This document shows, piece by piece, positions 3,069 through 22,141 of a DNA stretch of 64,000 bases. Under the pieces are notes generated by a model, which did no database searches, was not told the origin of the DNA, and saw only the letters and a list, made by a program, of their open reading frames with translations. The stretch comes from a virus. The stretch lies in IMG/VR virus record IMGVR_UViG_3300017766_003354, positions 82,906 to 146,905 of that record. The stretch is one strand, 5' to 3'. The position numbers and the translations under genes were made by a program. The stretch's first letter is position 1; every line of letters starts with the position of its first letter.

Positions 3069-3097
3069 ACTCTATTTCAATGGGTTGAAAATGTCAA
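3069..3097 (-). promoter_or_regulatory. Sigma70-type promoter, leaderless
   Basis: TTGACA-17 nt-TAGAGT, 7 nt before ATG 3061. Confidence 0.7.
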
Positions 3098-4152
3098 GGA
3101 GTTTTTTTAAGCCCTTGAATATCCCATGCGACCATCTGACGAACCAATTCTTTAAAATTGACTTTTGGTTGCCAATTTAATTCTTTTTTAATCAAGCTAT
3201 TATCTCCAAGCAGGGGGCTAGACTTCGATCTAACCAAAGAAGAATCTACTGTAACTAGCTTCTGACTGGCGAATTCAGCAAAGTCCGCCAAATAATTAGG
3301 AAGAATATAATATTCATTGAGTTTTTCTCCAACCCAAGTTCCTTCGATTCCCGCTGCTTGAAACGCTTGTTCAACAAATTCTTTTACTGTATGGCTCTCT
3401 CCTGAAGAAATGATATAGTCTTTGGGAACGGCGGCCTGCGTCATCAAAAATGCCGCCTCAACACCATCACCAGCAAAAGACCAATCCTTCTCAGTATTTA
3501 AATCCCCCAATTGAATTGGCTCAAAAGCTTCTCCTTTTTCCAAAGCTTTTTTAATTCTGGCTACTCCTCTAGTGATTTTTCGAGTAACATAAACAGGAGA
3601 TCTTTCAGTTGATTCTTGATTATAAAATATTCCGCTCACAGCAAAAAGATTATATTTTTGTCGATAAGTGTCTATAATTTCCCTAGCAGAATTCTTAGAG
3701 ACTCCGTAAATTGAATTGGGGTGTTTTGAAGTATTTTCGGTCTGCGGGTATTCGCCGCAATTACCAAAAATTTCAGAAGAACAAGCATTAAAAAAACGAC
3801 ATTCTGGACACAAACGCAAAATAGCATCAAGCATATTAAGAACCGATATGGTATTAATAGACATTGTAGCGACAGGCCAATTCCAACAATCAGGAACAAA
3901 CGCACTGCCAGCAAAATTAAAAAAGTAATCTGGTCGCTCTTTTTCTATTAGGCTAAAAATACTTGCCTGATCGGTGACATCTAAATGGACTGATTTAAAA
4001 TTAGGATTCTTATTTAGATAATGACTTGCAGAGGACCCTTTCTCCACAAATTCTGCCCCGACCACTTCAAACCCATAAGAAAGAAGAAGCTCGGCCATAT
4101 AACTTCCGAGATTCCCAGAAGTTCCTGTTACAATACATTTTAAAGGATTCAT
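3094..4152 (-). CDS. gmd: GDP-mannose 4,6-dehydratase
   Basis: TGTSGNLGSY NAD(P) motif, SSEIFG, YGVSK catalytic YxxxK, VTRKIT, LGDLNTEKDW. Confidence 0.9.
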   Translation of the reverse strand: MNPLKCIVTGTSGNLGSYMAELLLSYGFEVVGAEFVEKGSSASHYLNKNPNFKSVHLDVTDQASIFSLIEKERPDYFFNFAGSAFVPDCWNWPVATMSINTISVLNMLDAILRLCPECRFFNACSSEIFGNCGEYPQTENTSKHPNSIYGVSKNSAREIIDTYRQKYNLFAVSGIFYNQESTERSPVYVTRKITRGVARIKKALEKGEAFEPIQLGDLNTEKDWSFAGDGVEAAFLMTQAAVPKDYIISSGESHTVKEFVEQAFQAAGIEGTWVGEKLNEYYILPNYLADFAEFASQKLVTVDSSLVRSKSSPLLGDNSLIKKELNWQPKVNFKELVRQMVAWDIQGLKKTP

Positions 4153-4676
4153 ATTTTAATAAAGAAAGAGTTGAGGCCATCATCTGTGGTTGTCTGCAAC
4201 TGCAAATTATGCTCCAAGCAAAACTCATCTACAGCATCACAAACCTCAAAAAACTGCTCTCTATTATAGTCATGACCAGCTATAATTCCACCGCTCTTTA
4301 TTACCCTAAGTGATTCGGCCAATTCTTTCTTTGTGTGTTCGTATTGGTGGCTTGAATCTATGTAAATGAAGTCAAAATAGCCCTCTGGAAAACTTTTTAA
4401 AAATTCGACAGAATCACTCTTTTTTATAAAAACATTTTCGGTATTAGAAAATTTACCCTCAACCATTCTAAGAAGCTTGCCTCCATGATAAATTTCAATA
4501 TTATTTCCATTAACATCGCCGCTCTGAACGATCCCGTCAAAAAGATCAACAAGATATAGCTCTTTTGGTTGGCAGAGATTATATATCTCCTGAGAGAACT
4601 CTCCTTTAAAGACTCCCAACTCTGCAATAATAAGATCCTTATTTAAGGACTTCAGTAATTCTATTCTTGTTTTCAT
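4149..4676 (-). CDS. Class I SAM-dependent methyltransferase (Methyltransf_24-like)
   Basis: ELGVFKG, FDFIYIDSSHQY, IKSGGIIAGHDY. Confidence 0.85.
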   Translation of the reverse strand: MKTRIELLKSLNKDLIIAELGVFKGEFSQEIYNLCQPKELYLVDLFDGIVQSGDVNGNNIEIYHGGKLLRMVEGKFSNTENVFIKKSDSVEFLKSFPEGYFDFIYIDSSHQYEHTKKELAESLRVIKSGGIIAGHDYNREQFFEVCDAVDEFCLEHNLQLQTTTDDGLNSFFIKI

Positions 4677-5370
4677 TTAGAAATTTTTCCATTTTCTGTT
4701 TTTTGCCGAACATTGCGTTTTCAAATCCGCAAAAGTGATAAAGCTTTCGAAAGGCCGTAAAACAATTTTTGTGAGCATCGAAAACAGTTAAATAAGTAAA
4801 ATTCAAAGCTTTATTGAGATCGAATCTAGTCTCCTGAAGAACGGCGTAATTAAAGCTAGACTGCTCAAGAATAGCATTCTCCATAACGCTTTGGCTCTTA
4901 CAATTCTCAAATAGCTTTCTGACTCTGGCTAAAAACTCAATATTCTTAAAGGCAAACGACCCAGCATTGATTCCAAAAAAATGAGAGATCTTATCTGAGT
5001 ATCCTTGCGTAATGTCAAACGGATATTTAAACCAGTATCTTCCTTGCTCGCATGGAGCATTCATTAGCTTAGATTCTTGAGTTATAGATAATGGGCGATC
5101 ATCGAAAAGAAGTCCCAAATCTCCAAAAAACAAAATATCAGAATCTAAATAAATATACTGATCGTAGCCTTCTGGAATTTGATCTGAGTATTTCAGGAAA
5201 CCAATATAATTACCGCAAGAATCATCAACATATACTTTATGTCCACAATCACAATCCTTATCAGAAATAATGGCAAAATCGAACTCTCCATCAATATGAG
5301 ATAACATCATATCAATACATTCAATAGAACCATCCTTGAAATCAGAAACGGTATAAAGAAGAGTTTTCAT
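4639..5370 (-). CDS. Glycosyltransferase, GT-A fold (GT8-like)
   Basis: IYLDSDIL DxD, INAGSF, EQSSFN, LYHFCG. Confidence 0.75.
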   Translation of the reverse strand: MKTLLYTVSDFKDGSIECIDMMLSHIDGEFDFAIISDKDCDCGHKVYVDDSCGNYIGFLKYSDQIPEGYDQYIYLDSDILFFGDLGLLFDDRPLSITQESKLMNAPCEQGRYWFKYPFDITQGYSDKISHFFGINAGSFAFKNIEFLARVRKLFENCKSQSVMENAILEQSSFNYAVLQETRFDLNKALNFTYLTVFDAHKNCFTAFRKLYHFCGFENAMFGKKQKMEKFLNENKNRITEVLK

Positions 5371-5987
5371 CGAAGAAGTGATGAGATTTCATTTTGAGCC
5401 GTTCTTTGATAAACGGCCAGAATAGACCAATAGACCTTTAAATCGAGATCTTGAATTGCATAATTAAGCTGCCAGTCAAAGGGTGCGACTGGAGTTAAAG
5501 TATGATCAAAGATTTTCTGAGCAGATTTCGGATTCACCATATAGCAATGAGCATATCGGCTCGTCATCCATGGTGCTGTTTGAATAATAGTTGACCCCTG
5601 AATGTCTGCTTCTGGATAAGAACCAATAAATAACAAATCTCCATCGCCATCCAAAAAGTCTTCTGCGGCCAAATTGCAGAACTCTTTAAAATTGAAAAAA
5701 GGCTCCTTAATATCATCTTCTAGAATAACCCCTATGTTTTTTCGGGCACAAATTCTTTTTATAGCCTCTTGTTGTTTGAGATAGAGGGATATTTCAGCTT
5801 CATTTAAATATGAGCCATTTGCAGAATGCGGGCAAAAGGTTCTTTGGAAATTTTTTACTTCGGGGCTTTCTGGTAAAAATGATTCGATCCAATCAGCCTT
5901 GATTCTTTCTCGACTAAAGAAAGCCTCCATATATTCTGCTCTCTCTACAGCGGGCAGATGGTGCAAACAATAAAAGTCAATATCCAT
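5367..5987 (-). CDS. Glycosyltransferase family 25-like
   Basis: ERAEYM, EISLYLKQ, VILEDD, AHCYMVNPKSAQKI, PFDW. Confidence 0.8.
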   Translation of the reverse strand: MDIDFYCLHHLPAVERAEYMEAFFSRERIKADWIESFLPESPEVKNFQRTFCPHSANGSYLNEAEISLYLKQQEAIKRICARKNIGVILEDDIKEPFFNFKEFCNLAAEDFLDGDGDLLFIGSYPEADIQGSTIIQTAPWMTSRYAHCYMVNPKSAQKIFDHTLTPVAPFDWQLNYAIQDLDLKVYWSILAVYQRTAQNEISSLLR

Positions 5988-6757
5988 TAGATTGCAAGAT
6001 TATGTTTAATAGCTAAGGCGTCAAAATCCTCCAAAGAACGATGAACCTTATGTGGCGGCGGAACACCGCCCGACTCCAAGAGCCAATGCTTGGCCCAGAA
6101 GTTTTCATTTCTCAAAAGTCTCGCGTCTAAATTAACGTATCCTTCATGAACGACAAACGGAAAATTGCCGCTCTGCAAGTCTTCTAGCTTTTTTGAAAAT
6201 TGAGTAGATCTTGCTATATACCCGTTCGCATCGATCAGTTCACAAGAATCACTAACTTGAGTATTTATTGTTCCGTCTGGCTTTCTTGCATAATTCACAG
6301 GCCCACGAAACAAACCATCTTTGTGAATATACCATTTAGGAGTAATTGAGAAATAATGGTCTTTGTCTTTATATAAATTAATAGACGGAACCATATAGCA
6401 GTCAAAAAAATATTCCCCCAAAAGACCATAAGCCATCGTTGTCCACATGGGTTTTTGCCATTGTGGAATGTATTCGTCCATATCTAAACCAACCTTTATC
6501 TCGGATGTCGTAGATTGGAGGGCATTATTTTTGATTTTACCGTCAAGCCATGGATCTTTATAAGAATAATGAGATTCGACAATAACCAAATTTGAGAATT
6601 CTTCTTTTAGTTTTTTTAATTCCTCAAGAGTCCCATCTTCGCTAGTGTTTACGCAAATTACAACCTCGTCAGCGAAAGCGCAGAACCTATTTATCGACTT
6701 TTTATAGTCGAATCCGTTTTTGATCAAATTAAATGCGCTGGAATAAATAGAAATCAT
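5987..6757 (-). CDS. Glycosyltransferase family 2-like
   Basis: Start reassigned to ATG 6757 (ATGA overlap); FADEVVICVNTSEDGT, KNNAL, LDMDE. Confidence 0.8.
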   Translation of the reverse strand: MISIYSSAFNLIKNGFDYKKSINRFCAFADEVVICVNTSEDGTLEELKKLKEEFSNLVIVESHYSYKDPWLDGKIKNNALQSTTSEIKVGLDMDEYIPQWQKPMWTTMAYGLLGEYFFDCYMVPSINLYKDKDHYFSITPKWYIHKDGLFRGPVNYARKPDGTINTQVSDSCELIDANGYIARSTQFSKKLEDLQSGNFPFVVHEGYVNLDARLLRNENFWAKHWLLESGGVPPPHKVHRSLEDFDALAIKHNLAI

Positions 6758-7566
6758 TGCCATATAAAATCGTAATAAGCTTTCTGTCTTGCACCAATTT
6801 CTCGGCAAGAATCCATATTCAAACGACTCAAATCAAGATCAACTCTGACAACTGAATTCGGAATGATGTAAATTTGGCCTTTTCTGGAAATTTGATAACA
6901 CATATTACAGTGGTCACAATTAACATCTGCGCTCCATCTTACGGCATTGAAAACATTACTCTTAATAAGAGCAAACCCGCCGAACGCCGAAAGAACCTTA
7001 ATTGGCTTGCCGCTCTTCCAATCTTCTTGGTCTTGTTTTAAAAATGATGGACAGTCTGTGAAATAGATTCCTTTATTGCCAAAATTATCCCTATATGCGT
7101 AAACATCATAATAAGAATCAGGCCCGCCAAATGTTAAATCCTCAATTGGTTGGCGCACATTTGGAGTCACCATTACGGCGTCTTCAAGTGTGTCAAGCGA
7201 TAAAAGCTGAATCATGAAGTTCAACTTATTGAAACGAATATCAGAATCAATCAAAAGAGAGTAATCAGATTTATTTTCTCCAGCCAAATCTTTACATTTA
7301 TTGCGGCACTCGCAGAGGAATCTCATTCTTTCTGGATCGGTCACAGAGCCGAATTTCTTTGCGCCGAGATCTTCATATAAAAATTCACCTTTTCGAGAAG
7401 AAAGCCAATTTTTAATTAGTTCTCTGGTATTATCTTTCGAATCATTCTCATAAAAGAAATAAGAAAACTCAATTCTATGACTATCTTCAATACTTTCCAA
7501 CTGAGAAAAAAGCCTTGGAAGACTTTCTTCAGAATCTCGAAAGATGCAAAAAACAGAGACTTTCAT
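6754..7566 (-). CDS. GT-A glycosyltransferase, CAP59/Anp1-like
   Basis: FYENDSKDNT, RMRFLCECRN, LIDSDI, YYDVYAY, VLSAFGGFALIK, CDH. Confidence 0.7.
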   Translation of the reverse strand: MKVSVFCIFRDSEESLPRLFSQLESIEDSHRIEFSYFFYENDSKDNTRELIKNWLSSRKGEFLYEDLGAKKFGSVTDPERMRFLCECRNKCKDLAGENKSDYSLLIDSDIRFNKLNFMIQLLSLDTLEDAVMVTPNVRQPIEDLTFGGPDSYYDVYAYRDNFGNKGIYFTDCPSFLKQDQEDWKSGKPIKVLSAFGGFALIKSNVFNAVRWSADVNCDHCNMCYQISRKGQIYIIPNSVVRVDLDLSRLNMDSCREIGARQKAYYDFIWQ

Positions 7567-7751
7567 TAGAAAGGTTGTTCCCAGATTGGACCATGATTTG
7601 CCGCCTCTAGGATAGCGATTGCTTGTCTAAAGTCAGCGGCGTTGCTCGCCTCTAAGTCTGCTTGAGATTCGTCCCCTCGGGCGCGATTGATGGGTTCATT
7701 AGTTTCACATACTTCGAGTGCTATTTTTAGTTGGTCGATTGACGCTTTCAT
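7566..7751 (-). CDS. Hypothetical protein (61 aa)
   Basis: Preceded by sigma70 promoter; stop overlaps next start. Confidence 0.7.
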   Translation of the reverse strand: MKASIDQLKIALEVCETNEPINRARGDESQADLEASNAADFRQAIAILEAANHGPIWEQPF

Positions 7752-7757
7752 GTTGTT

Positions 7758-7785
7758 ATTATAGATTCGCCATCTAAATTTTCAA
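7758..7785 (-). promoter_or_regulatory. Sigma70-type promoter for glycosylation operon, leaderless
   Basis: TTGAAA-16 nt-TATAAT, 6 nt before ATG 7751. Confidence 0.7.
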
Positions 7786-7968
7786 GAAATTCTCAAACTC
7801 TGTTTCTCCTGTCTCAATCATTTTCAAAACATAAGGAACGCAATACTGACATTTTGAACAGCAGAGGTTCTTTTCTTTTAGTTCTTCTAGGGACTCTTTT
7901 TGGAGAAGAATTTGGATTTCCGAGAATGAAATATTATGGCAGATACACTTCTTTATCTGAGAGGGCAT
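7774..7968 (-). CDS. BFD-like [2Fe-2S] protein
   Basis: CICHNIS...CCSKCQYCVP (CxC...CxxC) spacing. Confidence 0.65.
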   Translation of the reverse strand: MPSQIKKCICHNISFSEIQILLQKESLEELKEKNLCCSKCQYCVPYVLKMIETGETEFENFLKI

Positions 7969-9956
7969 GCGCCATTTTCACACTCCAGTCCATCAATCAA
8001 TTCCGAACCAACATCAAACATAGAATCAATAGGCTTGACTCTTTTGATTTGTCGGTTGTATTCCTCTTCCGAGATTTCTTCCAAAGGAGCTTGGACGAAC
8101 CCGTGCTTGGAGTGCATTAGGAAGCTGAGAGTCTTCATATTTTTATCATAATTCTCGCTCATCCATGTCTTAATCGCGCCAAGCTCTTCTGGCTTATAAT
8201 AAACCGTTACCGAAACAGAATTATCTGCCCAAATTTTCTGAAGCTTTTTGGTAAGTTCGAGTTGATCTACTGCCCCCATTTGATCAGCCGTAATTGTGGA
8301 AGGTTCAAATTCGCACGGGAATTCAATAACAGTCATTCCATAATCTTCACTGCTGTCAAAGCGCCGAACGTATTCGGTCTTGTAGCCAGCGTCACGACAA
8401 AGTTTAACCAAAGGATCAGAACTGGCCATTCTCACCCTACGAATGAGATAACGAGAATAGGCGGGATGAACCCCAGAAGTCGCCCCTCCAAGAAGGGATA
8501 GTGTGCCAGAAGGTTTCACTGTCGTCAATTTGATGCTTTCGGGGATCGCTAATTGCATGCTCCAAGACTTATCGAACATTTTAAGCTCTCTGTAGCACTC
8601 GTCCAACCACTCCAACTTATCCAAAGCCTGACAAACACCAGTAACTCCTAGGCCAATGCGGCGATTCTTTTTGACAATTTTATCTGTCTTTTCGTAAAGC
8701 GCGGGCAAATTCCATACGGCTTTTTGAGTCTTATAGAGAAGTTTGGCGCAATCAATTAACTGTTCTTTTGACTCGATATTATTGAGATACAATTCTGAAA
8801 GATTGCAGGCTTCTCCGTCTGCCAAAGTAATTTCAGCGCATGGATTTACGCCCTCACAGTTGTCCTTTTTCTCTTCTCCAATTCTGCCAAATTTTTGGCA
8901 AAGTTTCATATTGATGAATCCGTAAGGTTCTCCCTTAGCCATTCCAGTTTTTGGATCAATAGTATATCCATTCTCCCAAACCTCATTGCTGATATGCGCG
9001 TAAGAATCAGCCTCAATGCTATTGTTTGATTTGCCTCTCCAATTTGGGATATCTCCATCGCTCCACTTTTTGGCCCTTAAATAAAGGTAGTCGTCAGGAT
9101 CGCCAATTGCTATCTCTGCGCTACGTCTGACATTTCCCGCGACAACAATATCTCCAATGATATTATTAATATCCAAGACATCAACAGATCTTAGCTTCTT
9201 GCCTTCGCGATTGGTCAAAACTCCAGCAATAGATTCAAGACCCTCTACTAGAATTTGTGGACCGCTGGCCGTTCCTCCAAATCCTTGAATTGGTTCTCCA
9301 GCGCCTCTAACCAAAATAGTAGAATACGAAAACGACTTGCCTGTAACAAAGAACGACTGAATAACCTTTCTAAGCAATTCCACCCATCCTTGTCGAGAGT
9401 CTGGGACAATAAAATCTGCGTCTTTTTCTTTATTATGGGTAATGTGAACGCCGCGTTTTACTCTCGGAAGTTCGTGGATGTCTTCGCGGCGAACGGAAAA
9501 GCCAACTCCTCCACCAAGCATTAAATGTTCAAATACAAAACAAAAATCCTCGATCTCTCTCATCGAGACATACCAGCAATTAAGAAGGGACGCAAGGCCA
9601 AACCTATCCACCGTAGAGGTCCCCAACTGCCACAGCATTCGGCCAGCAAAATTACACTTGAGATTAAAGACCAAATCAAAGAGTCTTTGAGCTTCTTCTG
9701 GAGAATATTTTGCGCCAATCTTTTGTGCTCCATTAATACAACGGGCAACTGTCTGCCACCATTCTTCGCTTACTCCATCACAAATCTTTCTCGCATAAGT
9801 CCTCTTATAAACAATATAGCCTAGTCCATTGAATCCCCATTTAGGGTTTGTTCCTTCATAAGGAGCAAGAAATTCCCTTGGCAGGATCTCTGAATAACAA
9901 TGCTTGTCCTTATATGCCCGCTCCTCTTGTAAAACCTCGTCCTTGATCATAGTCAT
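7953..9956 (-). CDS. nrdJ: Class II (B12-dependent) ribonucleotide reductase, monomeric RTPR type
   Basis: GRMLW, LLNCW, GGGVGF, GNVRRSA, NPCAE, CNL, TTVKPSGT, C-terminal CENGACPLR. Confidence 0.93.
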   Translation of the reverse strand: MTMIKDEVLQEERAYKDKHCYSEILPREFLAPYEGTNPKWGFNGLGYIVYKRTYARKICDGVSEEWWQTVARCINGAQKIGAKYSPEEAQRLFDLVFNLKCNFAGRMLWQLGTSTVDRFGLASLLNCWYVSMREIEDFCFVFEHLMLGGGVGFSVRREDIHELPRVKRGVHITHNKEKDADFIVPDSRQGWVELLRKVIQSFFVTGKSFSYSTILVRGAGEPIQGFGGTASGPQILVEGLESIAGVLTNREGKKLRSVDVLDINNIIGDIVVAGNVRRSAEIAIGDPDDYLYLRAKKWSDGDIPNWRGKSNNSIEADSYAHISNEVWENGYTIDPKTGMAKGEPYGFINMKLCQKFGRIGEEKKDNCEGVNPCAEITLADGEACNLSELYLNNIESKEQLIDCAKLLYKTQKAVWNLPALYEKTDKIVKKNRRIGLGVTGVCQALDKLEWLDECYRELKMFDKSWSMQLAIPESIKLTTVKPSGTLSLLGGATSGVHPAYSRYLIRRVRMASSDPLVKLCRDAGYKTEYVRRFDSSEDYGMTVIEFPCEFEPSTITADQMGAVDQLELTKKLQKIWADNSVSVTVYYKPEELGAIKTWMSENYDKNMKTLSFLMHSKHGFVQAPLEEISEEEYNRQIKRVKPIDSMFDVGSELIDGLECENGACPLR

Positions 9957-9961
9957 GTCTT

Positions 9962-9967
9962 TTACAC
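9962..9967 (-). promoter_or_regulatory. GTGTAA motif (putative phage-specific promoter)
   Basis: 5 nt upstream of nrdJ ATG; recurs before many genes. Confidence 0.6.
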
Positions 9968-10039
9968 ATTCTAAGGCAAGAAAAAGATTTTAGCAAGAAC
10001 TTTCTCAAAGAAAATTCTCGTCTGCGCCAGCCTACTATA

Positions 10040-10320
10040 TGAAATCGAGCATCGCGAGATTTCACACATTGTAAACGCGCAACTGCATCGTATTTACAGA
10101 GTCAATTGTTGTAGAATTTAATAAAGAATAGCTGAGTCTAATTATTCTGGAATGGAGAAATCAAACGAAACTTTTGCGAATCCTGATTTCGCAATGCAAG
10201 GATAATTAGCGAAGCTTGCGTAGAACAAACGAAACTTTGGTTTACTGCTGTTCAAGCAAATTGGAAAGGCGAAACGGTAATTTAAATCGGGACAGGCGAA
10301 ACTTTTGCGCATCCGTCCCG
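10040..10320. repeat. Array of about 7 hairpins, four with CGAAAC in the loop; candidate ncRNA/leader or origin
   Basis: Stems GAAATCA/TGATTTC (10157-10190) and CGGGAC/GTCCCG (10288-10320) both enclose CGAAACTTTTGCGnATCC. Confidence 0.6.
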
Positions 10321-10331
10321 CTTCTGTTTCA

Positions 10332-10359
10332 ATTATACAGACAATTTATTTCGTGTCAA
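10332..10359 (-). promoter_or_regulatory. Consensus sigma70 promoter reading into hairpin array and nrdJ
   Basis: TTGACA-16 nt-TATAAT. Confidence 0.75.
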
Positions 10360-10487
10360 GCTTTTTTTTTCAAAAATCTTCCATTATTTTCATTTCGCCG
10401 TCTTCCTTCTTAAATCTTCCACAAAATAAAGATTATACTGGGCGACCCAACGACTGTTTGAATCGCTTGTTATAGTGTAAAAAAGAC

Positions 10488-10516
10488 TTGACTTTTCATA
10501 ACTCGTTGACTATTAT
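10488..10516 (+). promoter_or_regulatory. Sigma70-type promoter for dut operon, leaderless
   Basis: TTGACT-17 nt-TATTAT, 6 nt before ATG 10523. Confidence 0.7.
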
Positions 10517-10522
10517 AGCACA

Positions 10523-10957: not shown

Positions 10958-10969
10958 TATTACAGTAAT

Positions 10970-11170: not shown

Positions 11171-11173
11171 ATT

Positions 11174-11776
11174 ATGGAAATTATCGCTGTATCAGGAATC
11201 GCCCGTTCTGGCAAAGACACATTCGCAGATTGCCTTGCGAAAGAAGTTTCCGACATGTTCCCCAACCTTAAAGTCCGAAGGGAGAGTCTAGCTTCCTTTC
11301 TCAAAGATGAAATGGCTGGGTTCTTGATGGAGAAATTCAATAAAGACATTTACTCGCTAGAAGGAGAAGAGAAGGAAAAGTTTCGACCTTTGCTTGTGGC
11401 GTATGGATTCGCAAAACGGTTGGATACAAAAGGAACCTACTTTACTTCTCTTCTCCAAAAAAAGATGGAGACGGAGAACGCTGACATATATATCATTTCT
11501 GATCTTCGATATGCAGAATCAGAATCAGATGAACTTTCGTGGTTAAAGAATCAAGGAGGCAAGCTTATCCATATTCGTCGCTACAATATAAAAAACGGCC
11601 AAAAACAATACATCAAACCCCCAAATTCTGACGAAAAGAAGAACGATCCTCTTCTCGAAAAGAATGCCGACTTCCATATTGATTGGGAATCTGCTTCTTC
11701 TCCACAAGAACTAAATAAAGAGGCTTCTAGATATTGCCAAAACTTCATCCATCAGAACATCAAGCTTTTCCTATGA
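11174..11776 (+). CDS. Deoxynucleoside monophosphate kinase (T4 gp1-like)
   Basis: IIAVSGIARSGKDT P-loop, RPLL, IISDLRY..E, GGKLIHIRR. Confidence 0.8.
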   Translation: MEIIAVSGIARSGKDTFADCLAKEVSDMFPNLKVRRESLASFLKDEMAGFLMEKFNKDIYSLEGEEKEKFRPLLVAYGFAKRLDTKGTYFTSLLQKKMETENADIYIISDLRYAESESDELSWLKNQGGKLIHIRRYNIKNGQKQYIKPPNSDEKKNDPLLEKNADFHIDWESASSPQELNKEASRYCQNFIHQNIKLFL

Positions 11777-12366
11777 GCGAATCAACCGATACAGAACTAG
11801 CTTTCAAAGTTCAAAAGGTAAACGACGAAGAGGCCCTTGGGGAGTTGATTTCTAGGCATTCTGGTATATACGTTGATATGATTCGAAAGTTTGGTGGGAA
11901 GTCTCTTACTGAGAATCAGGTTGCAGATTTAATGGGAGAAAAGGATTTTAATATCTATAAAGCCGCGATTGAGTATAACCCAGATAAAAGCAAATTCTCT
12001 ACTTTCCTTGCCATCAAGACGAAGTATCTTTGCCTTACTAGCAAGACCGTAAATAAAAAAACTAACCACTTCGTTGACTTTGACGAAGAAAGCTTCCGAT
12101 TAGCCTCGAACTCGGTTCCTCCAGACGAAGCCTCTGCTGATAATGAAATTATCGCAAAACTTTATTCAATAATTGACCGCCATCCAGATAAGCTCGTTAG
12201 GCAAATTTTCGAAGAGAGATACTTTTCAGGAAAGAACAACAAACTAAAATCTTGGAAAGAGATTTCCAAATCAGTGGGGCTTTCTATCCAAGGGGTAATT
12301 AACATTCACAACAGAACTCTTCCAGAATTTCAAAAACAACTACAACATGCAGAAATTACATTTTGA
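11773..12366 (+). CDS. Sigma-70 family RNA polymerase sigma factor
   Basis: Start at ATG 11773; DEEALGELI, YKAAIEYNPDKSKFSTF (region 2), SWKEISKSVGLSIQGV (region 4 HTH). Confidence 0.8.
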   Translation: MSESTDTELAFKVQKVNDEEALGELISRHSGIYVDMIRKFGGKSLTENQVADLMGEKDFNIYKAAIEYNPDKSKFSTFLAIKTKYLCLTSKTVNKKTNHFVDFDEESFRLASNSVPPDEASADNEIIAKLYSIIDRHPDKLVRQIFEERYFSGKNNKLKSWKEISKSVGLSIQGVINIHNRTLPEFQKQLQHAEITF

Positions 12367-13435
12367 TGGGCCGATCAATCCTCTGAGCTTGGGGAATGTA
12401 TCGTTTAATCTTCTCCGTGAAATGCGGAGAAAGAATATGGATATCGTTCTTTTCCCCACTGGAAATACGGCAAATTTTGAAGCCTTTGATAAGGCCGACC
12501 CAAAGTTGATTGACTGGATCAAGCAGAGCGGCTTTTCTCGCCTCAAGAGAATCGATAAGGACGCTCCGACTCTCAAGAACTGGCACATTAATGGTTCAGA
12601 GTCTAGGGTCGCTCCTAGACAGTTTCTATACACCTACTACGAAACAGACTCTCCCACCGAAGAAGAAGTTGCTCTAGTAAAAGCCCAAAACCACGTATTC
12701 TTTTCTTCTTCTTTTGCGGCGGATTGTTTTGAAAAAGCTGGTTGTGAGAATGTAAGTTTTGTTCCTCTCGGATTTGACGAGGACTTTCACATTACAGGAA
12801 AGAAATTTCCAGATGAAGTTATTCATTTCGGGCTAATTGGCAAATTCGAACGGCGAAAAAATACTCGTCAAATCATTCAAACTTGGCTTAAAAAATACGG
12901 CAACAATAACAAGTATCTTCTTACTTGCCTAGTCAATAATCCCTTCTTCAAACAAGAAGACTACCAAAAAATCATTTCTGATACTTTGGGCGGAAAGACT
13001 TGGAGTAATATTAACTTTCTCCCGACATTAGCTAAAAACTCAGAAGTAAATGAAGTTTTGAATGCTATTGATATTGATTTATCTGGATATAGCAATGGCG
13101 AGGGCTGGGCGCTTCCAGCATTTAATGCTACGGCTTTGGGCAAGTGGTCAATCGTCTCGAATTATTCCGCGCACAAAGATTGGGCGACTGACAAAAATGC
13201 CATTCTAGTCGAGCCAATTGGAATTCAGCCTTGCTATGATAATTACTTCTTTCGGCCAAATCAACCATTCTCGCAAGGAAACTATTGCCAACTCAGTGAA
13301 GAGTCTCTAGTGGCCGCAATGGAAGAAGCAGAACGCCGAGCCAAAACAATTAACTCTCAAGGACTTCTTCTTCAAGAAAAGTTCACTTATAAGAAATCAA
13401 TCGAACAAATACTCCAAAAAATCAATGAAATCTAA
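12347..13435 (+). CDS. Glycosyltransferase, GT-B (GT4-like)
   Basis: YYETD, VPLGFD, GKFERRKN, GEGWALPAFNATALGK. Confidence 0.8.
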   Translation: MQKLHFDGPINPLSLGNVSFNLLREMRRKNMDIVLFPTGNTANFEAFDKADPKLIDWIKQSGFSRLKRIDKDAPTLKNWHINGSESRVAPRQFLYTYYETDSPTEEEVALVKAQNHVFFSSSFAADCFEKAGCENVSFVPLGFDEDFHITGKKFPDEVIHFGLIGKFERRKNTRQIIQTWLKKYGNNNKYLLTCLVNNPFFKQEDYQKIISDTLGGKTWSNINFLPTLAKNSEVNEVLNAIDIDLSGYSNGEGWALPAFNATALGKWSIVSNYSAHKDWATDKNAILVEPIGIQPCYDNYFFRPNQPFSQGNYCQLSEESLVAAMEEAERRAKTINSQGLLLQEKFTYKKSIEQILQKINEI

Positions 13436-13853: not shown

Positions 13854-13854
13854 T

Positions 13855-14229
13855 ATGCCTCCGCTCTATACATATCTCAATGAAGAAACAGGGGAAGCAA
13901 AAGATGTTCTCCAGTCAATGAGTGAAAAACACGAATTTTTCGAAGATGGGGTTCAGTGGAAAAGAATCTTTTATGCGCCACAAATGTCAATCGACACAAA
14001 AGTTGACCCATATTCAGCAAAAGACTTCTCTAAAGCCACAAACAAAAAAGGAACAATTGGAGACATGATGGATCTATCCGCCGAACTCTCTGACAAAAGA
14101 GCGAATAAAGACGGAACCGATCCCGTAAAACAGAAACATTTCCAAGACTACGAGAAGAAAAATAAGAAAAAACATTTGTTAGATAAGCCGAAGGTTATTG
14201 AGAGTTCTTTTGCTAAGATTGAATTTTAA
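13855..14229 (+). CDS. Hypothetical protein, degenerate FmdB-like N-terminus
   Basis: MPPLYTYLNEETGE...QSMSE...WKRIF resembles FmdB family but lacks the Cys ligands. Confidence 0.55.
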   Translation: MPPLYTYLNEETGEAKDVLQSMSEKHEFFEDGVQWKRIFYAPQMSIDTKVDPYSAKDFSKATNKKGTIGDMMDLSAELSDKRANKDGTDPVKQKHFQDYEKKNKKKHLLDKPKVIESSFAKIEF

Positions 14230-16478: not shown

Positions 16479-18190
16479 GTAGAGCGCACCAAAAATGTTC
16501 TAGTTCTCAAAAAGCCATCGACATCAGTAAAATTCATCGTCATTTCTTCCCATCCGCTTGGAGGGAAAATATAATCGCCAGAATTAATTGGAAGAGTAAT
16601 TGGTTCTGGAATATTGATTGTCTTAGTGCCAGTAGAAGTAATTTGTCCGTCTGTCCAAGAAATGGATGAATCTCCAGTTGTAGTAACGAAGTTAAGTGTT
16701 CCGTTTTTGCCATTTGGCTCCAAAAATTGCCAATCGGCGTCTTGATCAAGCGTCATCAAGCCGTTCGACCAAGAGGCAAACACTTCTGAATTGATATTAA
16801 TATACCCTTCAACACCATTACCCGTGAAGCCACCTCCTCCACCTCCTCCAGTTCCAGTAGAAAAGATATCAATTCTGCCGTTATTTTGAATTTTGCCGTC
16901 AATCCAAGAAATATTAGTATTCGTCCCATCTAACCAAAGTTGGCCAGTTTTTTCTACCCAATCAGACGCCTTGAACTTGCTCCAAGTATTGTCTTGTTTG
17001 ATGTAAAGATAATTGCCTGTTTTTGTAATGAGTCCATTTGGCCCAAATAAATCGCCGCTACTCGAAGGCTGATAGGCGTTTAGTCCCTCTGCAATCAAAG
17101 TCCCTGCAATTTTAGTATTGCCAAAACTATCCACAACTATTTGCTTGGAACTCGCATCTGCAAATTCATTTTCAGTTCCAACAATGAAACAAGTATCCAA
17201 ATCAGAGTCCCCATTGACAAGATTTGAAAACTGAGTTGATTCAGCGAAGGCATCGAAGAGAATGGCTATAGAATTTTTGGAGACGACCTTGAAAAGATTG
17301 CCTTCTGGAACTGCGTTGTTTTCAGATAGCTGAACGTAATTTGCCGAGACGCCAGTTGTCGAAATAATTGAAGCTGAATTCAAGAAGAGATCATCGGCAA
17401 AAGTCTTGTCTCCAGAAATAACTTGCGCTCCTGTTTTTTGGACAGAATTCGAAACTTGTGGCGTCAAGTTTCCACTTAAAGTATTGATTTTTGAATTCAA
17501 TGTTGAACCTGTCGCGGCAATACTGGCAGCCAAAATCCCACTAGCCCCAGTCAAATCAGAAGAAGAAGTAAGAATTGATCCTTTGTAATAAATATCGCCG
17601 CCCACACTAATACTGCCCGAAAAAATACCAGAACTACTAGGACTCAAATAAAGACTATTCAAGGCCCCGAGATAAAGATTGTCTTGCATATAGACCTTGG
17701 ACGCAACATAAGATCCTCCAGTAAATGAGATATACAGGGCGTTATTTTTATTGGCGTTTACGACTACGCTCGATTGGTCTTGTAGAATAGTCGTGCCAGT
17801 AGTAGCAATAAAACTACAAAAACTTCCTCCAAGGATTGTATTTTTGTGAGAATTCTCATCAATTGAACAATTGAAGCCATTTACAATCACGTTATCATTT
17901 CCGAGAATTGTCGAATCATCCCCGTTTACAAGAACATTCCCTGTTCCACCAATATTATTCCCCGTGCCACCAATAACATCGTTATATTCAGAACTGTAAA
18001 AATTCGAAGAATCTGGGACAGAAACATCTGATCCATTAATACTGAGATTCCCGACAATATTAAAATCGCCAGAAATTGTGGGCGAAAGATTGCCATACAC
18101 GTAATTCGCCCCCTGCGAAAAATTCACATGTCCGCTCGGACTTGAAAAAGTGTGCAGATTTATCTGTTGTGGTTGAATTTTGGAATACAT
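16475..18190 (-). CDS. Putative tail fibre / beta-helical virion protein
   Basis: G/N-rich beta-helix-like repeats (IGGTGNNIGGTGNVLV), coiled segment, KTGAQVISGDKTF motif, YLYIKQDNTWSK, poly-Gly hinge. Confidence 0.65.
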   Translation of the reverse strand: MYSKIQPQQINLHTFSSPSGHVNFSQGANYVYGNLSPTISGDFNIVGNLSINGSDVSVPDSSNFYSSEYNDVIGGTGNNIGGTGNVLVNGDDSTILGNDNVIVNGFNCSIDENSHKNTILGGSFCSFIATTGTTILQDQSSVVVNANKNNALYISFTGGSYVASKVYMQDNLYLGALNSLYLSPSSSGIFSGSISVGGDIYYKGSILTSSSDLTGASGILAASIAATGSTLNSKINTLSGNLTPQVSNSVQKTGAQVISGDKTFADDLFLNSASIISTTGVSANYVQLSENNAVPEGNLFKVVSKNSIAILFDAFAESTQFSNLVNGDSDLDTCFIVGTENEFADASSKQIVVDSFGNTKIAGTLIAEGLNAYQPSSSGDLFGPNGLITKTGNYLYIKQDNTWSKFKASDWVEKTGQLWLDGTNTNISWIDGKIQNNGRIDIFSTGTGGGGGGGFTGNGVEGYININSEVFASWSNGLMTLDQDADWQFLEPNGKNGTLNFVTTTGDSSISWTDGQITSTGTKTINIPEPITLPINSGDYIFPPSGWEEMTMNFTDVDGFLRTRTFLVRST

Positions 18191-18224
18191 GCGTTACAAT
18201 ACCTCAGAAACAATTACACGAAAA

Positions 18225-18833
18225 ATGAGATACCAACTTTACAAACCAAATTCCAAGAATACTGGCTGCGCTGCTTCTTTCAATGTCGGGCGCAACAGGG
18301 ACGGAAGTCCATGCCTTTTTATTAATACTGTCCAGCAAAGCGGCTGGAATGATCAAACCAAGACAGGCTCTTTCAAGGAGAACGCCAAAAATCCTCAAAA
18401 ATCAGCCACTGTAAAAATGAATGCAAACGAGGCTGGAGAAATGATTTCTTCGATTCAGTCTCGAACCCCAGTCGTGTTTTTCCACAAAAATAATGAGGAT
18501 ACGACAATCATTACCTTTTCTCCTTGGGATAAGGACCGCAAGGTAAAGCTTCAGGGAGGAGAATCGACATTCAAGAGTCTCGCTTGGGGACTTTCCATCT
18601 CTAAAAATTCTTCGACTCATTATAAGGTCGCTTTTGAAGCTGGAGAAAGTGAAGTATTTAAGGTTTTGCTTGTGGATTTTATCCAGCAATGCCTTTTCCA
18701 CGAAGCTAATAAGTATCAAGGTAATGAAGATTCGTCCGCATCGGGCGGTAATGAACTTTTGGGAGGAAATTCCAGCAGCCAGACCCCAGAGAATGAGCCT
18801 GCGGAAGAAGACGAGGATTCAGTCCCGTTTTAA
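18225..18833 (+). CDS. Putative single-stranded DNA-binding protein (Whirly-like fold, acidic SSB-type tail)
   Basis: Start at ATG 18225; C-terminus EEDEDSVPF; LYK..AA, EAGEMI, FFH pattern. Confidence 0.6.
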   Translation: MRYQLYKPNSKNTGCAASFNVGRNRDGSPCLFINTVQQSGWNDQTKTGSFKENAKNPQKSATVKMNANEAGEMISSIQSRTPVVFFHKNNEDTTIITFSPWDKDRKVKLQGGESTFKSLAWGLSISKNSSTHYKVAFEAGESEVFKVLLVDFIQQCLFHEANKYQGNEDSSASGGNELLGGNSSSQTPENEPAEEDEDSVPF

Positions 18834-18836
18834 AAT

Positions 18837-19310
18837 ATGGAAGAGAAGGTGTGTTTTAAATGTGGCCAAATTCTGCCTCTGAGTGATTTTTATCGTCATT
18901 CTCAGATGGCAGATGGCCATGTCAACAAATGCAAGGAATGTAATAAAAAAGACGTTCAAGAGGATTACAAGAGAAAAATTGTCGATCCAGAATGGAGGCT
19001 TAAAGAAAGAGAACGAAGCAGGGAGAAAATGCGAACTGCTAGAGGCAATGGGAAATATCTTTCTATTCCTCCAGACAAGAAGAGAGGATCCCTTAAAAGA
19101 TATACGGATAAGTATCCAGAAAAAAAGATTGCAAGAAACAAATCTCAACGCCTAAATCCCGAGCCTTGTGTAGTTTGTGGTTCAACCGAAAACCTTGAAG
19201 GCCATCACGAAGACTATTCGAAACCAGAAGATATAACTTGGCTTTGTCGCAAGCATCATTACGAAAGGCATGTCGAAATTAGAAAACAACAATTACTAGA
19301 TGGCAGATAG
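18837..19310 (+). CDS. HNH-type endonuclease with N-terminal zinc finger
   Basis: CFKC..FY..GHVNKCKEC; PCVVCG..EGHHEDYSKPEDITWLCRKHH. Confidence 0.8.
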   Translation: MEEKVCFKCGQILPLSDFYRHSQMADGHVNKCKECNKKDVQEDYKRKIVDPEWRLKERERSREKMRTARGNGKYLSIPPDKKRGSLKRYTDKYPEKKIARNKSQRLNPEPCVVCGSTENLEGHHEDYSKPEDITWLCRKHHYERHVEIRKQQLLDGR

Positions 19311-21033
19311 AATCAAAGTATTGCTCCATAGCAACTATTCTAGGATGATTACTGGGTTTGGAAAGAATATGCGTAATATTCTCCTAGCCCTATATCAAGA
19401 TCCAGAATTCGAAATAATTGAAGCTGCGAATGGCGTCTCCTATGGTCGGGACGCCAAAACGCCTTGGAAATCATTCGGCACTGGTCCGTCTAGCCAAGAG
19501 CTAATTAATTCTCTCGGCCAAGACCAAGCTAAACAGCGGGCCGCCGCTTATGGGTTCTATGAGATTGATAAAATCGTAGCAGAAGTAAAGCCTGATGTTT
19601 ATTTAGGCATCGAAGATATTTGGGCGTTCAATGGATTTGTTGACACAAAACCTTGGTGGAATGAGACTAAAAAGATAATCTGGACGACCCTAGATAGCCT
19701 CCCTATTCTCCCAGAGGCTTACACAATGGCCAATTCTTGTGATAAGTTTTTAGTTTGGGCGGGTTTCTCTGAAGAGGAGATGAAAAAAACGGGATGCAAA
19801 AATGTCGAAACTCTTCATGGCGCGGTGGATTATTCTAATTTCAAACCTCTCGCCAATCGAGAAGAATTGAGAAAAAGACATGGTTTACAGGATAGTTTTG
19901 TAATTGGATTTGTCTTTAAAAACCAGCTTCGGAAATCTGTTCCAAATCTTTTGGATGGGTTCAGGCTTTTCAAGGCAAAAGTCCCTAATGCAAAACTAAT
20001 TCTTCATACAGATTGGGCCGACAAAGAACACGGCTGGGACATAATGAGATACCTCAAGGAAAAGGGTTTGAGCGCCGATGACGTTTTGTGCTCTTATTCC
20101 TGCGAAGCTTGCGGAGAGTATTCTTTGGGAGCTTATTCTGGACCAGAGTTAGATTGTCCTCATTGCGGGGCGGCAAAAAAATTCAAAACAAAAAGTTCTG
20201 GACACGGCTTGTCAGAACTCCAATTAAATGAGATTTACAACCTGATGGATGTTTACTGTCACCCGTTTACCAGCGGTGGGCAAGAACTCCCAATCCAAGA
20301 AGCAAAAGCCGCAGGACTCATTACACTGGTCACAGAATACTCTTGTGGGACTGATTCGTGCTATCCAGAACAAGGCGGGCTTCCTCTTGCGTGGAACGAA
20401 TATAGAGAACCTCATTCTCAATTTATTAAAGCTTCTACTTGTCCAGAGAGCATTTGTTCTCGACTTGATCAAGTTTATAGCATGTCTCCAGAGGAGAAAG
20501 TTTCTCTGATCCAAAATGGAAAAGAATGGGTTAAAAAGGAATTCTCTGTCCAATCTGTCGTCTCCCGCCTAAAACAAATAATCAAAGAAGTCCACGCCGC
20601 CCCACTTGTTAAAGCAGAGCAAAAAAATCTCCCACAAGAAAACAAAAGAACCGAATTCGATACCCTCTTAGATAAAGAGAGAAAAGATAGAATCCTATTC
20701 GTCCTACCGCAAAGCGAAGAAGACGTATTCGTGGCAACCTCTCTTTTGCCGAATATCAAAGAAACCTACCCCGACAAAGACATCTATTTTGCCACGAAGC
20801 CAGAAAACAAAGAGTTTCTTTTAGGTAATCCTTTTGTTTATAAAATTCTGGACTTTCACCCTCAGATGGAAAACCTTTTAATGATGGAAGGACAAGGAGA
20901 AAATCATGAAGGGTATTTTGAAATTTGTTTTCTGCCTCACGTTGGAACTCAAAAAGTCCTCGATTACATTCATCACGGCAAAGATAAGATTGCCTTAAAT
21001 ATTTATTCTCCCAATTACAATGTCACCCATTGA
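19300..21033 (+). CDS. GT4-like glycosyltransferase with Zn-ribbon insert, fused to GT9 N-terminal domain
   Basis: TGFG, KNQLRKS, CEAC..CPHC, LNEIYNLMD, GGQELPIQEAKAAG; C-terminal RILFVLPQSEEDVFVATSLLPNIKETYP. Confidence 0.8.
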   Translation: MADRIKVLLHSNYSRMITGFGKNMRNILLALYQDPEFEIIEAANGVSYGRDAKTPWKSFGTGPSSQELINSLGQDQAKQRAAAYGFYEIDKIVAEVKPDVYLGIEDIWAFNGFVDTKPWWNETKKIIWTTLDSLPILPEAYTMANSCDKFLVWAGFSEEEMKKTGCKNVETLHGAVDYSNFKPLANREELRKRHGLQDSFVIGFVFKNQLRKSVPNLLDGFRLFKAKVPNAKLILHTDWADKEHGWDIMRYLKEKGLSADDVLCSYSCEACGEYSLGAYSGPELDCPHCGAAKKFKTKSSGHGLSELQLNEIYNLMDVYCHPFTSGGQELPIQEAKAAGLITLVTEYSCGTDSCYPEQGGLPLAWNEYREPHSQFIKASTCPESICSRLDQVYSMSPEEKVSLIQNGKEWVKKEFSVQSVVSRLKQIIKEVHAAPLVKAEQKNLPQENKRTEFDTLLDKERKDRILFVLPQSEEDVFVATSLLPNIKETYPDKDIYFATKPENKEFLLGNPFVYKILDFHPQMENLLMMEGQGENHEGYFEICFLPHVGTQKVLDYIHHGKDKIALNIYSPNYNVTH

Positions 21034-22141
21034 ACGTTACGCGCTTTCTACTGGAGTCAAAATAGAAAATCCCCAAATTCTTGAGCACTTTTATCCTGTT
21101 TCGGCGGATAAATATGTTTGCTTTGGGCCGTCTAAAAAGGATAACTTAAGAGACTATGATTTTTGGAATCTAGTAATTGAGCTTATTTCTCCCGTCTTAA
21201 AAGGAATGGGTTATACAACAGTTCAAATTGGCACCCAAAAAGATGACCCCATTGGGTGCGATATTGATTTGCGCGGAAAACTTAATATCAGACAGGCTGC
21301 GGGCGTCTTAAAGAATTGCGAGTTTTTTGTTGGAGTTGATACTTTTTTAACTCATATCGCCGCATTTCAAGGCAAGCCTATCGTGGCGATTTATGCTGCT
21401 TCTTTTTTGGAGTGCTGCAAGCCTCATTGGGGCGACTTTTCAAAGCACCACCTTATTCAAACGCCGAGAGGAGAAAAAGAAAATCCGTCTTTTATCCTGA
21501 ACGAAAATCCAAAATCAATCAACCGAATTAAGCCAGAAGAAATAGTCTCTAAGATAGTCAAAATTCTTGGAGTGAATTTCGATCCAAGATTTAGAACTCT
21601 TTATGTCGGGCCGCGCTTTAAAGATGAGTGTGTTGACGTTATTCCTTTTAGCTTCTCCAAGGTGGTGAGCGACAAGATTAACATTCGAATGGACATCTTT
21701 CATGGAGAAAAAGAGCTTCAGCAAATTCTCCAAAACAATCGCGCCGAAGTTACAATTAGAACTTCTTTCGAATTAAATTTCCAGAATGTGCGTAATATTA
21801 AGTCGGTTAATTATGTTTCGGATTCTTTTGATACTCAGTTTATTGAACGTCTCAAAAAGCTAGGAATTAAAATAACCCTACTCTGCACATCAGAGGATGC
21901 CCTCTCCCGCGAAAGGTTTAAGCTTTTCGATTATACCATCAATCTTTTTCAGCCCGATAAACTCATAGAAGAAAACAAAAAGAAACTTACAAAAGACCCC
22001 TTTCTTGTTTCCACCATTAGCTCTAAAAAAGTAATCTGCGGAGACAAAGCTTTTAATTCTCTTTTCGAATATTCGAAGAAAGTTGATGACTTTTTTGTTG
22101 ACTTGGATTGGCTTTATGTTTACGATAGAGGGCATGAATGA
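21020..22141 (+). CDS. GT9 (heptosyltransferase-like) C-terminal domain protein
   Basis: VQIG, DLRGKLNIRQAAGVLKNCEFFVGVDTFLTHIAA..GKPIVAIY. Confidence 0.75.
   Translation: MSPIERYALSTGVKIENPQILEHFYPVSADKYVCFGPSKKDNLRDYDFWNLVIELISPVLKGMGYTTVQIGTQKDDPIGCDIDLRGKLNIRQAAGVLKNCEFFVGVDTFLTHIAAFQGKPIVAIYAASFLECCKPHWGDFSKHHLIQTPRGEKENPSFILNENPKSINRIKPEEIVSKIVKILGVNFDPRFRTLYVGPRFKDECVDVIPFSFSKVVSDKINIRMDIFHGEKELQQILQNNRAEVTIRTSFELNFQNVRNIKSVNYVSDSFDTQFIERLKKLGIKITLLCTSEDALSRERFKLFDYTINLFQPDKLIEENKKKLTKDPFLVSTISSKKVICGDKAFNSLFEYSKKVDDFFVDLDWLYVYDRGHE
22098..22126 (+). promoter_or_regulatory. Sigma70-type promoter, leaderless
   Basis: TTGACT-17 nt-TACGAT, 7 nt before ATG 22134. Confidence 0.65.

Follow-up and report, generated by a model that had tools for sequence, protein, structure and literature searches.

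Which molecule does a phage decorate when it encodes its own sugar-nucleotide dehydratase, a methyltransferase and a battery of glycosyltransferases? Phage glycosyltransferases are usually filed as agents of DNA glucosylation or of lysogenic serotype conversion. We took up this question in a 64,000-nucleotide stretch of viral DNA (positions 82,906 to 146,905 of IMG/VR record IMGVR_UViG_3300017766_003354), hereafter the window, whose positions are used throughout. The record, 146,905 bp long with direct terminal repeats and rated 100% complete, has the window as its right-hand 64 kb; its source is a freshwater (lake) metagenome, and the phage is uncultured. An initial annotation, made from the letters alone, had described a glycan assembly line between 3094 and 22141 with at least seven glycosyltransferase open reading frames (ORFs). 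All of the named ORFs are present where it placed them, and we count seven with glycosyltransferase domains. The reading we favour, at a probability of roughly 0.4, is a two-tier, soluble, cytoplasmic glycosylation system whose acceptor would be the phage’s own virion proteins.

The sugar operon runs on the minus strand from 7751 to 3094 and comprises seven ORFs, which overlap by 1-4 nucleotides apart from one overlap of 38 nucleotides. Directly upstream lies a sigma-70-type promoter-like site (7758..7785, minus strand; TTGAAA-16-TATAAT, 11/12, a consensus match only), and a second sigma-70-like site sits just past the operon end (3097-3069). The operon promoter appears to be of host type and early. 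Profiles, motifs and ESM Atlas comparisons agreed with the initial annotation on the identity of the six enzymes, namely Gmd, a methyltransferase and GT8-, GT25-, GT2- and CAP59-like transferases.

Gmd (3094..4152, minus strand) is the most securely assigned. It matches Pfam GDP_Man_Dehyd (PF16363) at 7.3e-83, covering positions 1-332 of 332, and its 11 best sequence matches in the PDB are all guanosine diphosphate (GDP)-mannose 4,6-dehydratases, from 2e-67 (2z1m) to 1e-47. Its CSSEIFG, YGVSK, GTSGNLG and YNQESTERSPVYVTRKIT segments align to 2z1m as the catalytic Ser/Thr-x-Glu, Tyr-xxx-Lys and GxxGxxG motifs and the NxES...VTRKIT GDP-binding segment. The NCBIfam model TIGR01472 scores 242 bits, under its trusted cut-off of 415, and gmd is still by far the best model. 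Judged by sequence, then, this is a genuine but divergent GDP-mannose 4,6-dehydratase. It is also the sole short-chain dehydrogenase/reductase (SDR) encoded in the genome, and the phage carries no reductase, epimerase or aminotransferase for its 4-keto product.

The gene overlapping it encodes an S-adenosylmethionine-dependent methyltransferase of the Methyltransf_24 family (4149..4676, minus strand; Pfam 5.2e-14), probably a sugar O-methyltransferase. The other four enzymes are predicted glycosyltransferases of GT-A type, each bearing a DxD motif. A CAP59/Cmt1 (GT69)-like enzyme (6754..7566, minus strand) has a DSD motif at residue 107 and matches Pfam CAP59_mtransfer at 3.5e-6, with a score of 27.3 bits that falls under the cut-off of 28.8. 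The GT2 (Glyco_tranf_2_4)-like enzyme (5987..6808, minus strand) carries a DMD motif, has a weak Pfam match (0.0085) and is backed by more than 200 metagenomic homologues, some of them named glycosyltransferase by the Joint Genome Institute (JGI), and by homologues in 17 related loci. A 100%-identical database record is 256 amino acids long; the true start is therefore probably the ATG at about 6757, which would give an ATGA-type overlap with the preceding gene.

The GT8-like (4639..5370, minus strand) and GT25-like (5367..5987, minus strand) ORFs had no sequence match in Pfam, NCBIfam or the PDB, and a pattern scan of IMG/VR returned no relatives of the former. Their YLDSD and ILEDD motifs, respectively, are typical of the two families. 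In the ESM Atlas, the predicted structure of the GT8-like ORF, a nucleotide-diphospho-sugar transferase candidate, resembles viral clusters carrying GT8/Nucleotid_trans (TM-score 0.67-0.76), and giant-virus Methyltransf_24-GT8 fusions are among its structural neighbours. The GT25-like ORF reached a feature score of 0.97 with 211 shared features to clusters that are 87-97% PF01755, its Atlas neighbours overall are 87-100% PF01755, and its structure scored 0.78-0.85, with the top value of 0.85 to a LosA-family/GT25 cluster. The remaining gene, first in the operon (7566..7751, minus strand), encodes 61 amino acids and matches phrog_3376 at 4.8e-10. G+C content falls to 0.36 at 4001-6000, within the GT-A part of the island, vs 0.38-0.43 around it, which fits recent acquisition.

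Three further glycosyltransferases, of the GT-B fold, are encoded on the plus strand; they were first labelled GT4, GT4-GT9N and GT9C. The first, which we call GTa (12347..13435), is a GT4-like enzyme that matches phrog_2170, a glycosyltransferase family, over its full length at 1.1e-13. The second, GTb (19300..21033; 577 residues), begins with a GT4-like domain, in which phrog_2170 matches the first ~430 residues at 5.3e-18. Pfam Glycos_transf_1 gives 21.0 and 21.1 bits for GTa and the N-terminal part of GTb vs a gathering score of 26.4 (E = 2.7e-4 for GTa), and the two share a GT4-type donor-lobe motif. Within its GT4-like domain GTb also carries a CxxC...CxxC insert (residues 268-289); this insert and the donor-lobe motif are invariant across a 29-sequence GTb alignment. 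The third, GTc (21020..22141), matches Pfam GT9 (PF01075) at 6.8e-11 and 42.4 bits, with a cut-off of 22.

The GT9 match of GTc covers half an enzyme. In its AlphaFold model (predicted local distance difference test score, pLDDT, of 91), residues 1-185 match GT9 donor-binding C-lobes with Z scores of 17.5 (3tov), 16.8 (RfaF), 16.6 (WaaC) and 15.4 (TibC), and other GT-B families score no higher than 11. These structural alignments begin near target residue 130-185 and extend to the target end. The rest of GTc is a second alpha/beta domain (residues about 190-373) with a weak RgpF match only (0.002). By alignment with Escherichia coli WaaF, the missing acceptor lobe would be the 114-residue tail of GTb (residues about 464-577): WaaF 198-301 aligns to GTc 44-139 (hhalign E 1.2e-7), and, at the weaker E of 3.1e-4 (probability 39%), WaaF 2-68 pairs with GTb 464-530, the G-D of the catalytic loop being among the aligned residues. 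Residues 9-66 of 3tov align to GTb 464-521 at a weak E of 0.26, and GTb D475 is nearly invariant in the 29-sequence alignment. A six-frame search with PF01075 found the C-lobe only and did not pick up the N-lobe. With the N-lobe in the GTb tail and the C-lobe in GTc, one GT9 enzyme would thus be split over two translationally coupled ORFs. Their overlap is 14 nucleotides here and 4 nucleotides in relatives. The two-ORF arrangement recurs in 79 of 80 related loci, the remaining locus having no called GTc ORF; a search for a fused GTb-GTc form, in itself weak evidence, found none.

These relatives set two tiers of genes apart. We compared the surroundings of the GT-B genes in 80 related loci and the position of gmd in the 38 loci with enough sequence. 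GTb is present in 80 of 80, in an unbroken block of a single-stranded-DNA-binding (SSB)-like gene, GTb, GTc and a Rad52-like gene that persists even where both flanks differ. GTa, a core gene of the lineage, was found in 49 loci at 47-65% identity. Across the lineage GTa, GTb and GTc are kept at 43-65% identity and Gmd at 28-45%. A Gmd-like gene in that identity range lies just upstream of a pair of genes, c122 and a RecA-like gene, in 38 of 38 loci, and gmd is the conserved anchor of the island of sugar genes. In two loci (L188 and L190) the GT block is followed without a break by the gmd island and RecA-like gene, which ties block and island together.

What lies upstream of gmd is hypervariable: 162 proteins from the relatives fall into 67 families, and the GT8-like, GT25-like and CAP59-like genes of this phage recur in none of the related loci. 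By a Pfam tally and two detailed scans, islands of relatives include a complete pseudaminic-type set (PseB, PseC, NeuB, formyltransferases, PIG-L and a cytidine monophosphate (CMP)-transferase). They also hold a set of cytidylyltransferase, dehydroquinate synthase (DHQS)-like and aminotransferase genes and, further, GMER-like reductases, DegT aminotransferases, GT2 enzymes and Methyltransf_24 proteins; in several relatives a GMER-like or DegT gene sits beside gmd. Like the operon and GT-B enzymes of this phage, none of which has a transmembrane-like segment, these island proteins lack such segments (0 of 162). The enzymes are therefore predicted to be soluble and together make up a methylating tool-kit for several sugars, both as first proposed.

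From these findings we infer the following pathway. The first tier, common to the lineage, would consist of Gmd, GTa and a physically coupled GTb and GTc. The acceptor lobe of the split GT9 would follow the zinc-ribbon GT4 domain in GTb and the donor lobe would precede the extra domain in GTc, so that GTb and GTc would have to dock to form the GT9 active site; docking would unite three or four transferase activities in a single complex. The second tier would be the swappable island upstream of gmd, represented here by four GT-A transferases and the O-methyltransferase under the host-type early promoter. Gmd would act on GDP-mannose of the host to give GDP-4-keto-6-deoxymannose, from which a 6-deoxyhexose is made, and, as the phage has no second SDR, reduction would fall to Gmd itself or to a host enzyme. 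The transferases would then assemble a methylated oligosaccharide, of which the core enzymes would lay down a conserved inner part, on virion proteins if our tentative choice of acceptor is right, and the island would add a strain-specific outer part. By analogy, lineage-wide core transferases combined with a variable outer tier fit a conserved acceptor of the phage’s own.

The gene neighbourhood could suggest another acceptor. GTa is always preceded in relatives by a phage sigma-70-family factor, which here overlaps its start (11734..12366, plus strand; 92 homologues, several JGI-named sigma factor), and adjoins genes for a deoxynucleoside monophosphate (dNMP) kinase and dUTPase. We had considered ORF 11734-12366 as a base-modifying enzyme and rejected it, its homologues being sigma factors. 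The GTb-GTc block opens with the SSB-like gene y217 (18180..18833, plus strand), assigned from an alignment consensus with an acidic C-terminal ...VPF tail, and closes with z272 (22083..22901, plus strand), a probable Rad52/Sak-type annealing protein. The AlphaFold model of z272 (pLDDT 79) has RAD52 as top match in Foldseek (probability 0.97, E 2e-3) and in VIA-align (Z 7.3, followed by Sak at 5.9 and Red-beta at 5.3), which are middling scores; PDB sequence searches with profiles of y217 and z272 returned nothing. What stays next to the GT-B genes throughout the 80 loci is these SSB-like and Rad52-like genes, together with the sigma factor and genes of nucleotide metabolism. By contrast, the presumed fibre genes that separate the GT blocks differ in number and size, and ORFs 14226-18190 had no family match in Pfam or PHROG. 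The fibre genes’ adjacency, which the initial annotation had pointed out, is therefore incidental, an accident of a module boundary.

Glycosyltransferases set among SSB-like, Rad52-like, dUTPase, dNMP kinase and ribonucleotide reductase (RNR) genes throughout a lineage could decorate phage DNA against restriction, with the island diversifying the sugar. In searches of the complete genome, the profiles PF00303, PF02511, PF12851, PF00145 and PF13640 (ThyA, ThyX, TET/JBP, C5-methylase and 2-oxoglutarate (2OG) oxygenase) all stayed without a match at E <= 0.1. Avoidance of restriction sites is extreme as well. CCGG has 0 copies in 147 kb vs about 238 expected per strand, and GTAC has 1 copy; eight 6-mer palindromes are absent (CGGCCG, GGCGCC, CATATG, CCGCGG, GCGCGC, CGCGCG, AGCGCT and CTCGAG), and mean observed/expected is 0.46 for 6-mer palindromes vs 1.00 for all 6-mers. 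Avoidance of CCGG and GTAC is common to relatives. Such avoidance is a signature of DNA readable by restriction enzymes, unlike the hypermodified DNA of T-even phages, and would therefore mean that this phage’s DNA is readable by them. Known phage clusters do place complex glycans, with heptose, Kdo-type sugars and GT8-like secondary additions, on 5-hydroxymethylcytosine (bioRxiv 10.1101/2023.12.21.572611), and poly-arabinose on 5-hydroxycytosine is known in phage (PMC13326640). Every known route nevertheless begins with a ThyA homologue or with a C5-methylase plus a TET/JBP dioxygenase, none of which this complete genome encodes, and it is GT4 and GT9 that the GT-B enzymes resemble, rather than T4 alpha- or beta-glucosyltransferase. 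Because the known entry enzymes are absent and restriction sites are avoided, DNA glycosylation, which had already been judged weakened from the window, is unlikely on sequence evidence; of the acceptors considered here we give nucleic acid the smallest chance.

A host-surface acceptor has more in its favour. The complete genome contains no ORF with more than two transmembrane-like segments, among which we had sought a flippase, a bactoprenol glycosyltransferase, a serotype glycosyltransferase, a polymerase and a ligase. Because it lacks a polytopic membrane protein, GtrABC-type O-antigen conversion and Wzy-type pathways are excluded. This part of the initial annotation now stands for the whole genome, but the argument does not extend to host-surface targets in general: lipopolysaccharide (LPS)-core and lipooligosaccharide (LOS) enzymes of GT9, GT4, GT8 and GT25, which are either soluble or peripheral, depend on export by the host. 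The phage transferases could likewise modify lipid-linked acceptors of the host (lipid A-core or LOS, undecaprenyl-linked O-units or capsule, or teichoic acid) on the cytoplasmic side of the inner membrane, with export by host MsbA/Lpt or Wzx/Wzy. The surface of the infected cell would be altered, which might, for example, block superinfection or keep progeny from sticking to debris, and the island would vary because host glycans vary.

The enzyme inventory is in keeping with such envelope remodelling. One GT9, two GT4-like, one GT8-like, one GT25-like and one GT2-like enzyme represent LPS-core/LOS families, whose enzymes are likewise without transmembrane helices; the structures that GTc matches best include RfaF and WaaC (Z 16.6-16.8); the island stands under a host-type early promoter; and several homologues are JGI-named ‘glycosyltransferase involved in cell wall biosynthesis’. 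The marine cyanomyoviruses P-SSM2, S-SCSM1 and S-SCSM2R, with up to 13 glycosyltransferases plus sugar epimerases, were read by their authors as modifying the cell surface (PMC12801897). Conversely, the core-gene status of GTa, GTb, GTc and Gmd across a marine and freshwater lineage is easier to reconcile with an acceptor of the phage itself than with diverse host glycans, and multi-glycosyltransferase proteins that are fused or split typify viral self-glycosylation rather than LPS-core pathways. The island families listed in relatives included no heptose-precursor genes. We consider a host-envelope acceptor somewhat unlikely, though a good deal less so than DNA.

A different cytoplasmic acceptor would also suit enzymes that are soluble and, by promoter and context, apparently expressed early or in the middle of infection. 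It could be a host protein modified for take-over, in the manner of EarP or toxin-type glycosyltransferases, a phage non-structural protein, RNA or a small glycoconjugate. GT4-type BshA and MshA act on small molecules, and a PDB sequence search with GTb gave BshA as the best match, a weak one (E 0.037). The seven or eight transferase activities, together with a methyltransferase and the whole nonulosonic-acid pathways of relatives, point instead to an exposed, diversifying surface glycan, and we think an acceptor of this kind improbable, only slightly ahead of nucleic acid.

Several observations weigh against virion proteins as acceptor. All three GT loci lie among early/middle DNA-metabolism genes (RNR, dUTPase, dNMP kinase, sigma factor, SSB-like, Rad52-like and RecA-like), outside the late virion operons. 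The combination of GT9, GT4, GT8 and GT25 is the classical LPS-core/LOS tool-kit, and the acceptor may instead be LPS. The GT9 N-lobe was assigned on weak scores (E 3e-4 and 0.26), and the GTb-GTc complex is a predicted one. Among the proteins themselves, [ST]G dipeptides are enriched 2-3x in four tail proteins (25339-26106, 26103-27464, 38500-38967 and 16475-18190, the last on the minus strand; z 4.6, 4.1, 3.4 and 2.7), and the reverse G[ST] is not. This enrichment may be weakly compatible with a glycosylation sequon, and it may equally be mere beta-turn structure. A GTGTAAA late-promoter motif was not enriched in our search (8 copies vs 6.2 expected).

The phage belongs to a lineage that is very common in IMG/VR and sampled from both marine and fresh water: its capsid protein retrieved 57 loci at 54-82% identity, and GTb retrieved at least 591 matches. 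Among 50,697 phage records, by contrast with IMG/VR, we found no blastn match to the sugar operon and no tblastn match to the capsid protein, which has no PHROG match either; PHROG and Pfam searches with the structural proteins were blank with the sole exception of the large terminase subunit (TerL), which is only 24% identical to that of Bacillus siphoviruses. As far as these comparisons reach, the phage is without a cultured relative. GTb has no more than remote matches there, in two Synechococcus phages (S-CBS4 and S-EIVl), and the gene contexts of these are mixed. In S-CBS4 (L228), a cultured cyanophage, the remote GTb homologue lies between portal and head genes and adjoins a methyltransferase, a virion-module context.

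Searches for clues to the host gave little. The phage has no WhiB, and Pfam scans of 20 further window ORFs, made partly for lysis genes, yielded nothing bearing on the host. A genome-collection search returned only one contig (L230, CAZDRR010000001.1; 138,977 bp), filed as a Candidatus Saccharibacteria metagenome-assembled genome. It encodes a capsid protein 90% identical to the phage’s and is evidently, by its sequence, itself a phage genome binned as a bacterium.

Between the SSB-like gene and GTb lies a Cys/His-rich ORF (18837-19310, plus strand), a putative HNH-type endonuclease, that is absent from the relatives examined. A LAGLIDADG homing endonuclease is encoded at 56163-57011 (minus strand), and its homologues adjoin GTa and GTb in one related locus (L152); homing endonucleases are thus mobile in the vicinity of these core genes. 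Downstream of the RNR gene, and directly after it, a small Cys-rich protein (7774-7968, minus strand; CxC...CxxCxxC) is reminiscent of Bfd-type 2Fe-2S domains and is kept in locus L065. The class II RNR of that locus (6347-10342) is 1331 amino acids long vs 667 here, with 86% identity over 295 residues, which suggests an intein or large insert. Most relatives have in place of this RNR a pair of genes for 323 and 548 amino acids, possibly a two-subunit RNR.

To our knowledge, the viruses in which virion glycosylation has been demonstrated are limited to some giant viruses and a small number of actinophages. The present lineage is abundant, keeps its glycosyltransferases as core genes and diversifies the attached sugar island as fast as bacteria do their O-antigens. 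A glycan on the virion, if that is where it sits, would have consequences for how aquatic viruses adsorb, decay, are grazed and are recognised by antibodies or lectins. A bolder proposal, which we regard as doubtful, is that the lineage universally encodes an obligate glycosyltransferase machine of two chains and several activities (zinc-ribbon GT4, divided GT9 and the further domain of GTc) plus Gmd and swaps its sugar island, from methylated 6-deoxyhexose to pseudaminic-type nonulosonic acids, for strain-specific virion serotypes. If true, phages would have their own equivalent of O-antigen variation in bacteria, and glycan-coated virions would be common in lakes and oceans. Whatever the acceptor, the islands form a natural library of soluble rare-sugar enzymes, and the conserved, apparently split GT9 is a new architecture in which the cooperation of GT-B lobes can be studied.

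A precedent for a divided GT-B enzyme is Alg13/Alg14, in which the two Rossmann lobes of one GT-B enzyme are on separate, associating polypeptides, Alg14 being membrane-anchored and the enzyme GT28-like. The phage pair differs in being GT9 rather than GT28-like and in that both chains are predicted to be soluble and carry extra catalytic domains. Among undivided GT9 enzymes, TibC heptosylates serines of beta-helical autotransporters and bears a Cys4 finger insert, so that a GT9 fold acting on protein is known (PMC4358343). The N-terminal half of GTc matches the donor lobe of WaaC, WaaF and TibC, the GTb tail aligns with the N-terminus of WaaF, and Cys4 is a feature shared with TibC. Unlike in these three, GT9 here would be split over two ORFs, each half fused to another domain, and the Cys4 insert lies in the GT4 part.

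As a system, the locus resembles that of the chloroviruses, whose own multidomain glycosyltransferase and methyltransferase proteins modify the capsid protein in the cytoplasm and build a conserved core glycan (PMC7826918). Like PBCV-1 (A064R, A111/114R and a viral Gmd), the phage has virus-encoded soluble glycosyltransferases, a putative sugar O-methyltransferase and a GDP-mannose dehydratase, and would add variable outer sugars; in both, several glycosyltransferase activities would be joined in one protein or complex, and the GT8-like ORF resembles giant-virus GT8 and Methyltransf_24-GT8 proteins. Unlike PBCV-1, this is a tailed bacteriophage whose GT4 and split GT9 core has no chlorovirus counterpart, and the likeness is at fold level.

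Other phages offer partial parallels. Mycobacteriophages Che8, Corndog and Myrna carry glycans on capsid and tail-tube proteins, according to the account of Freeman et al. 2023 given in PMC12619734 and PMC12801897. As there described, their glycosyltransferase (plus methyltransferase) operons also lie outside the virion module and O-glycosylate capsid or tail-tube proteins; theirs are small, cluster-specific accessory sets of actinophages, whereas the genes of the present lineage comprise lineage-wide core glycosyltransferases and a hypervariable island. The cyanophages P-SSM2, S-SCSM1 and S-SCSM2R, aquatic like this lineage, hold many GT-A and GT-B genes with nucleoside diphosphate (NDP)-sugar epimerases or dehydratases in variable islands (PMC12801897). 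These T4-like cyanophages are an unrelated lineage, and their glycosyltransferases are accessory, without a split GT9 or a conserved GT block. In the account outlined in PMC10117803, Megavirinae carry clade-specific clusters for rare bacterial-type sugars that serve fibril glycosylation. Related viruses thus differ in their sugar clusters there as here; those are giant viruses of eukaryotes, unlike the gmd-anchored island in a phage replication module. In aggregate, phage sugar islands and virion glycosylation are both already known, and what is new is an apparently divided GT9 joined to a zinc-ribbon GT4, the presence of glycosyltransferases as core genes in an abundant uncultured lineage and the hypervariable island anchored by gmd.

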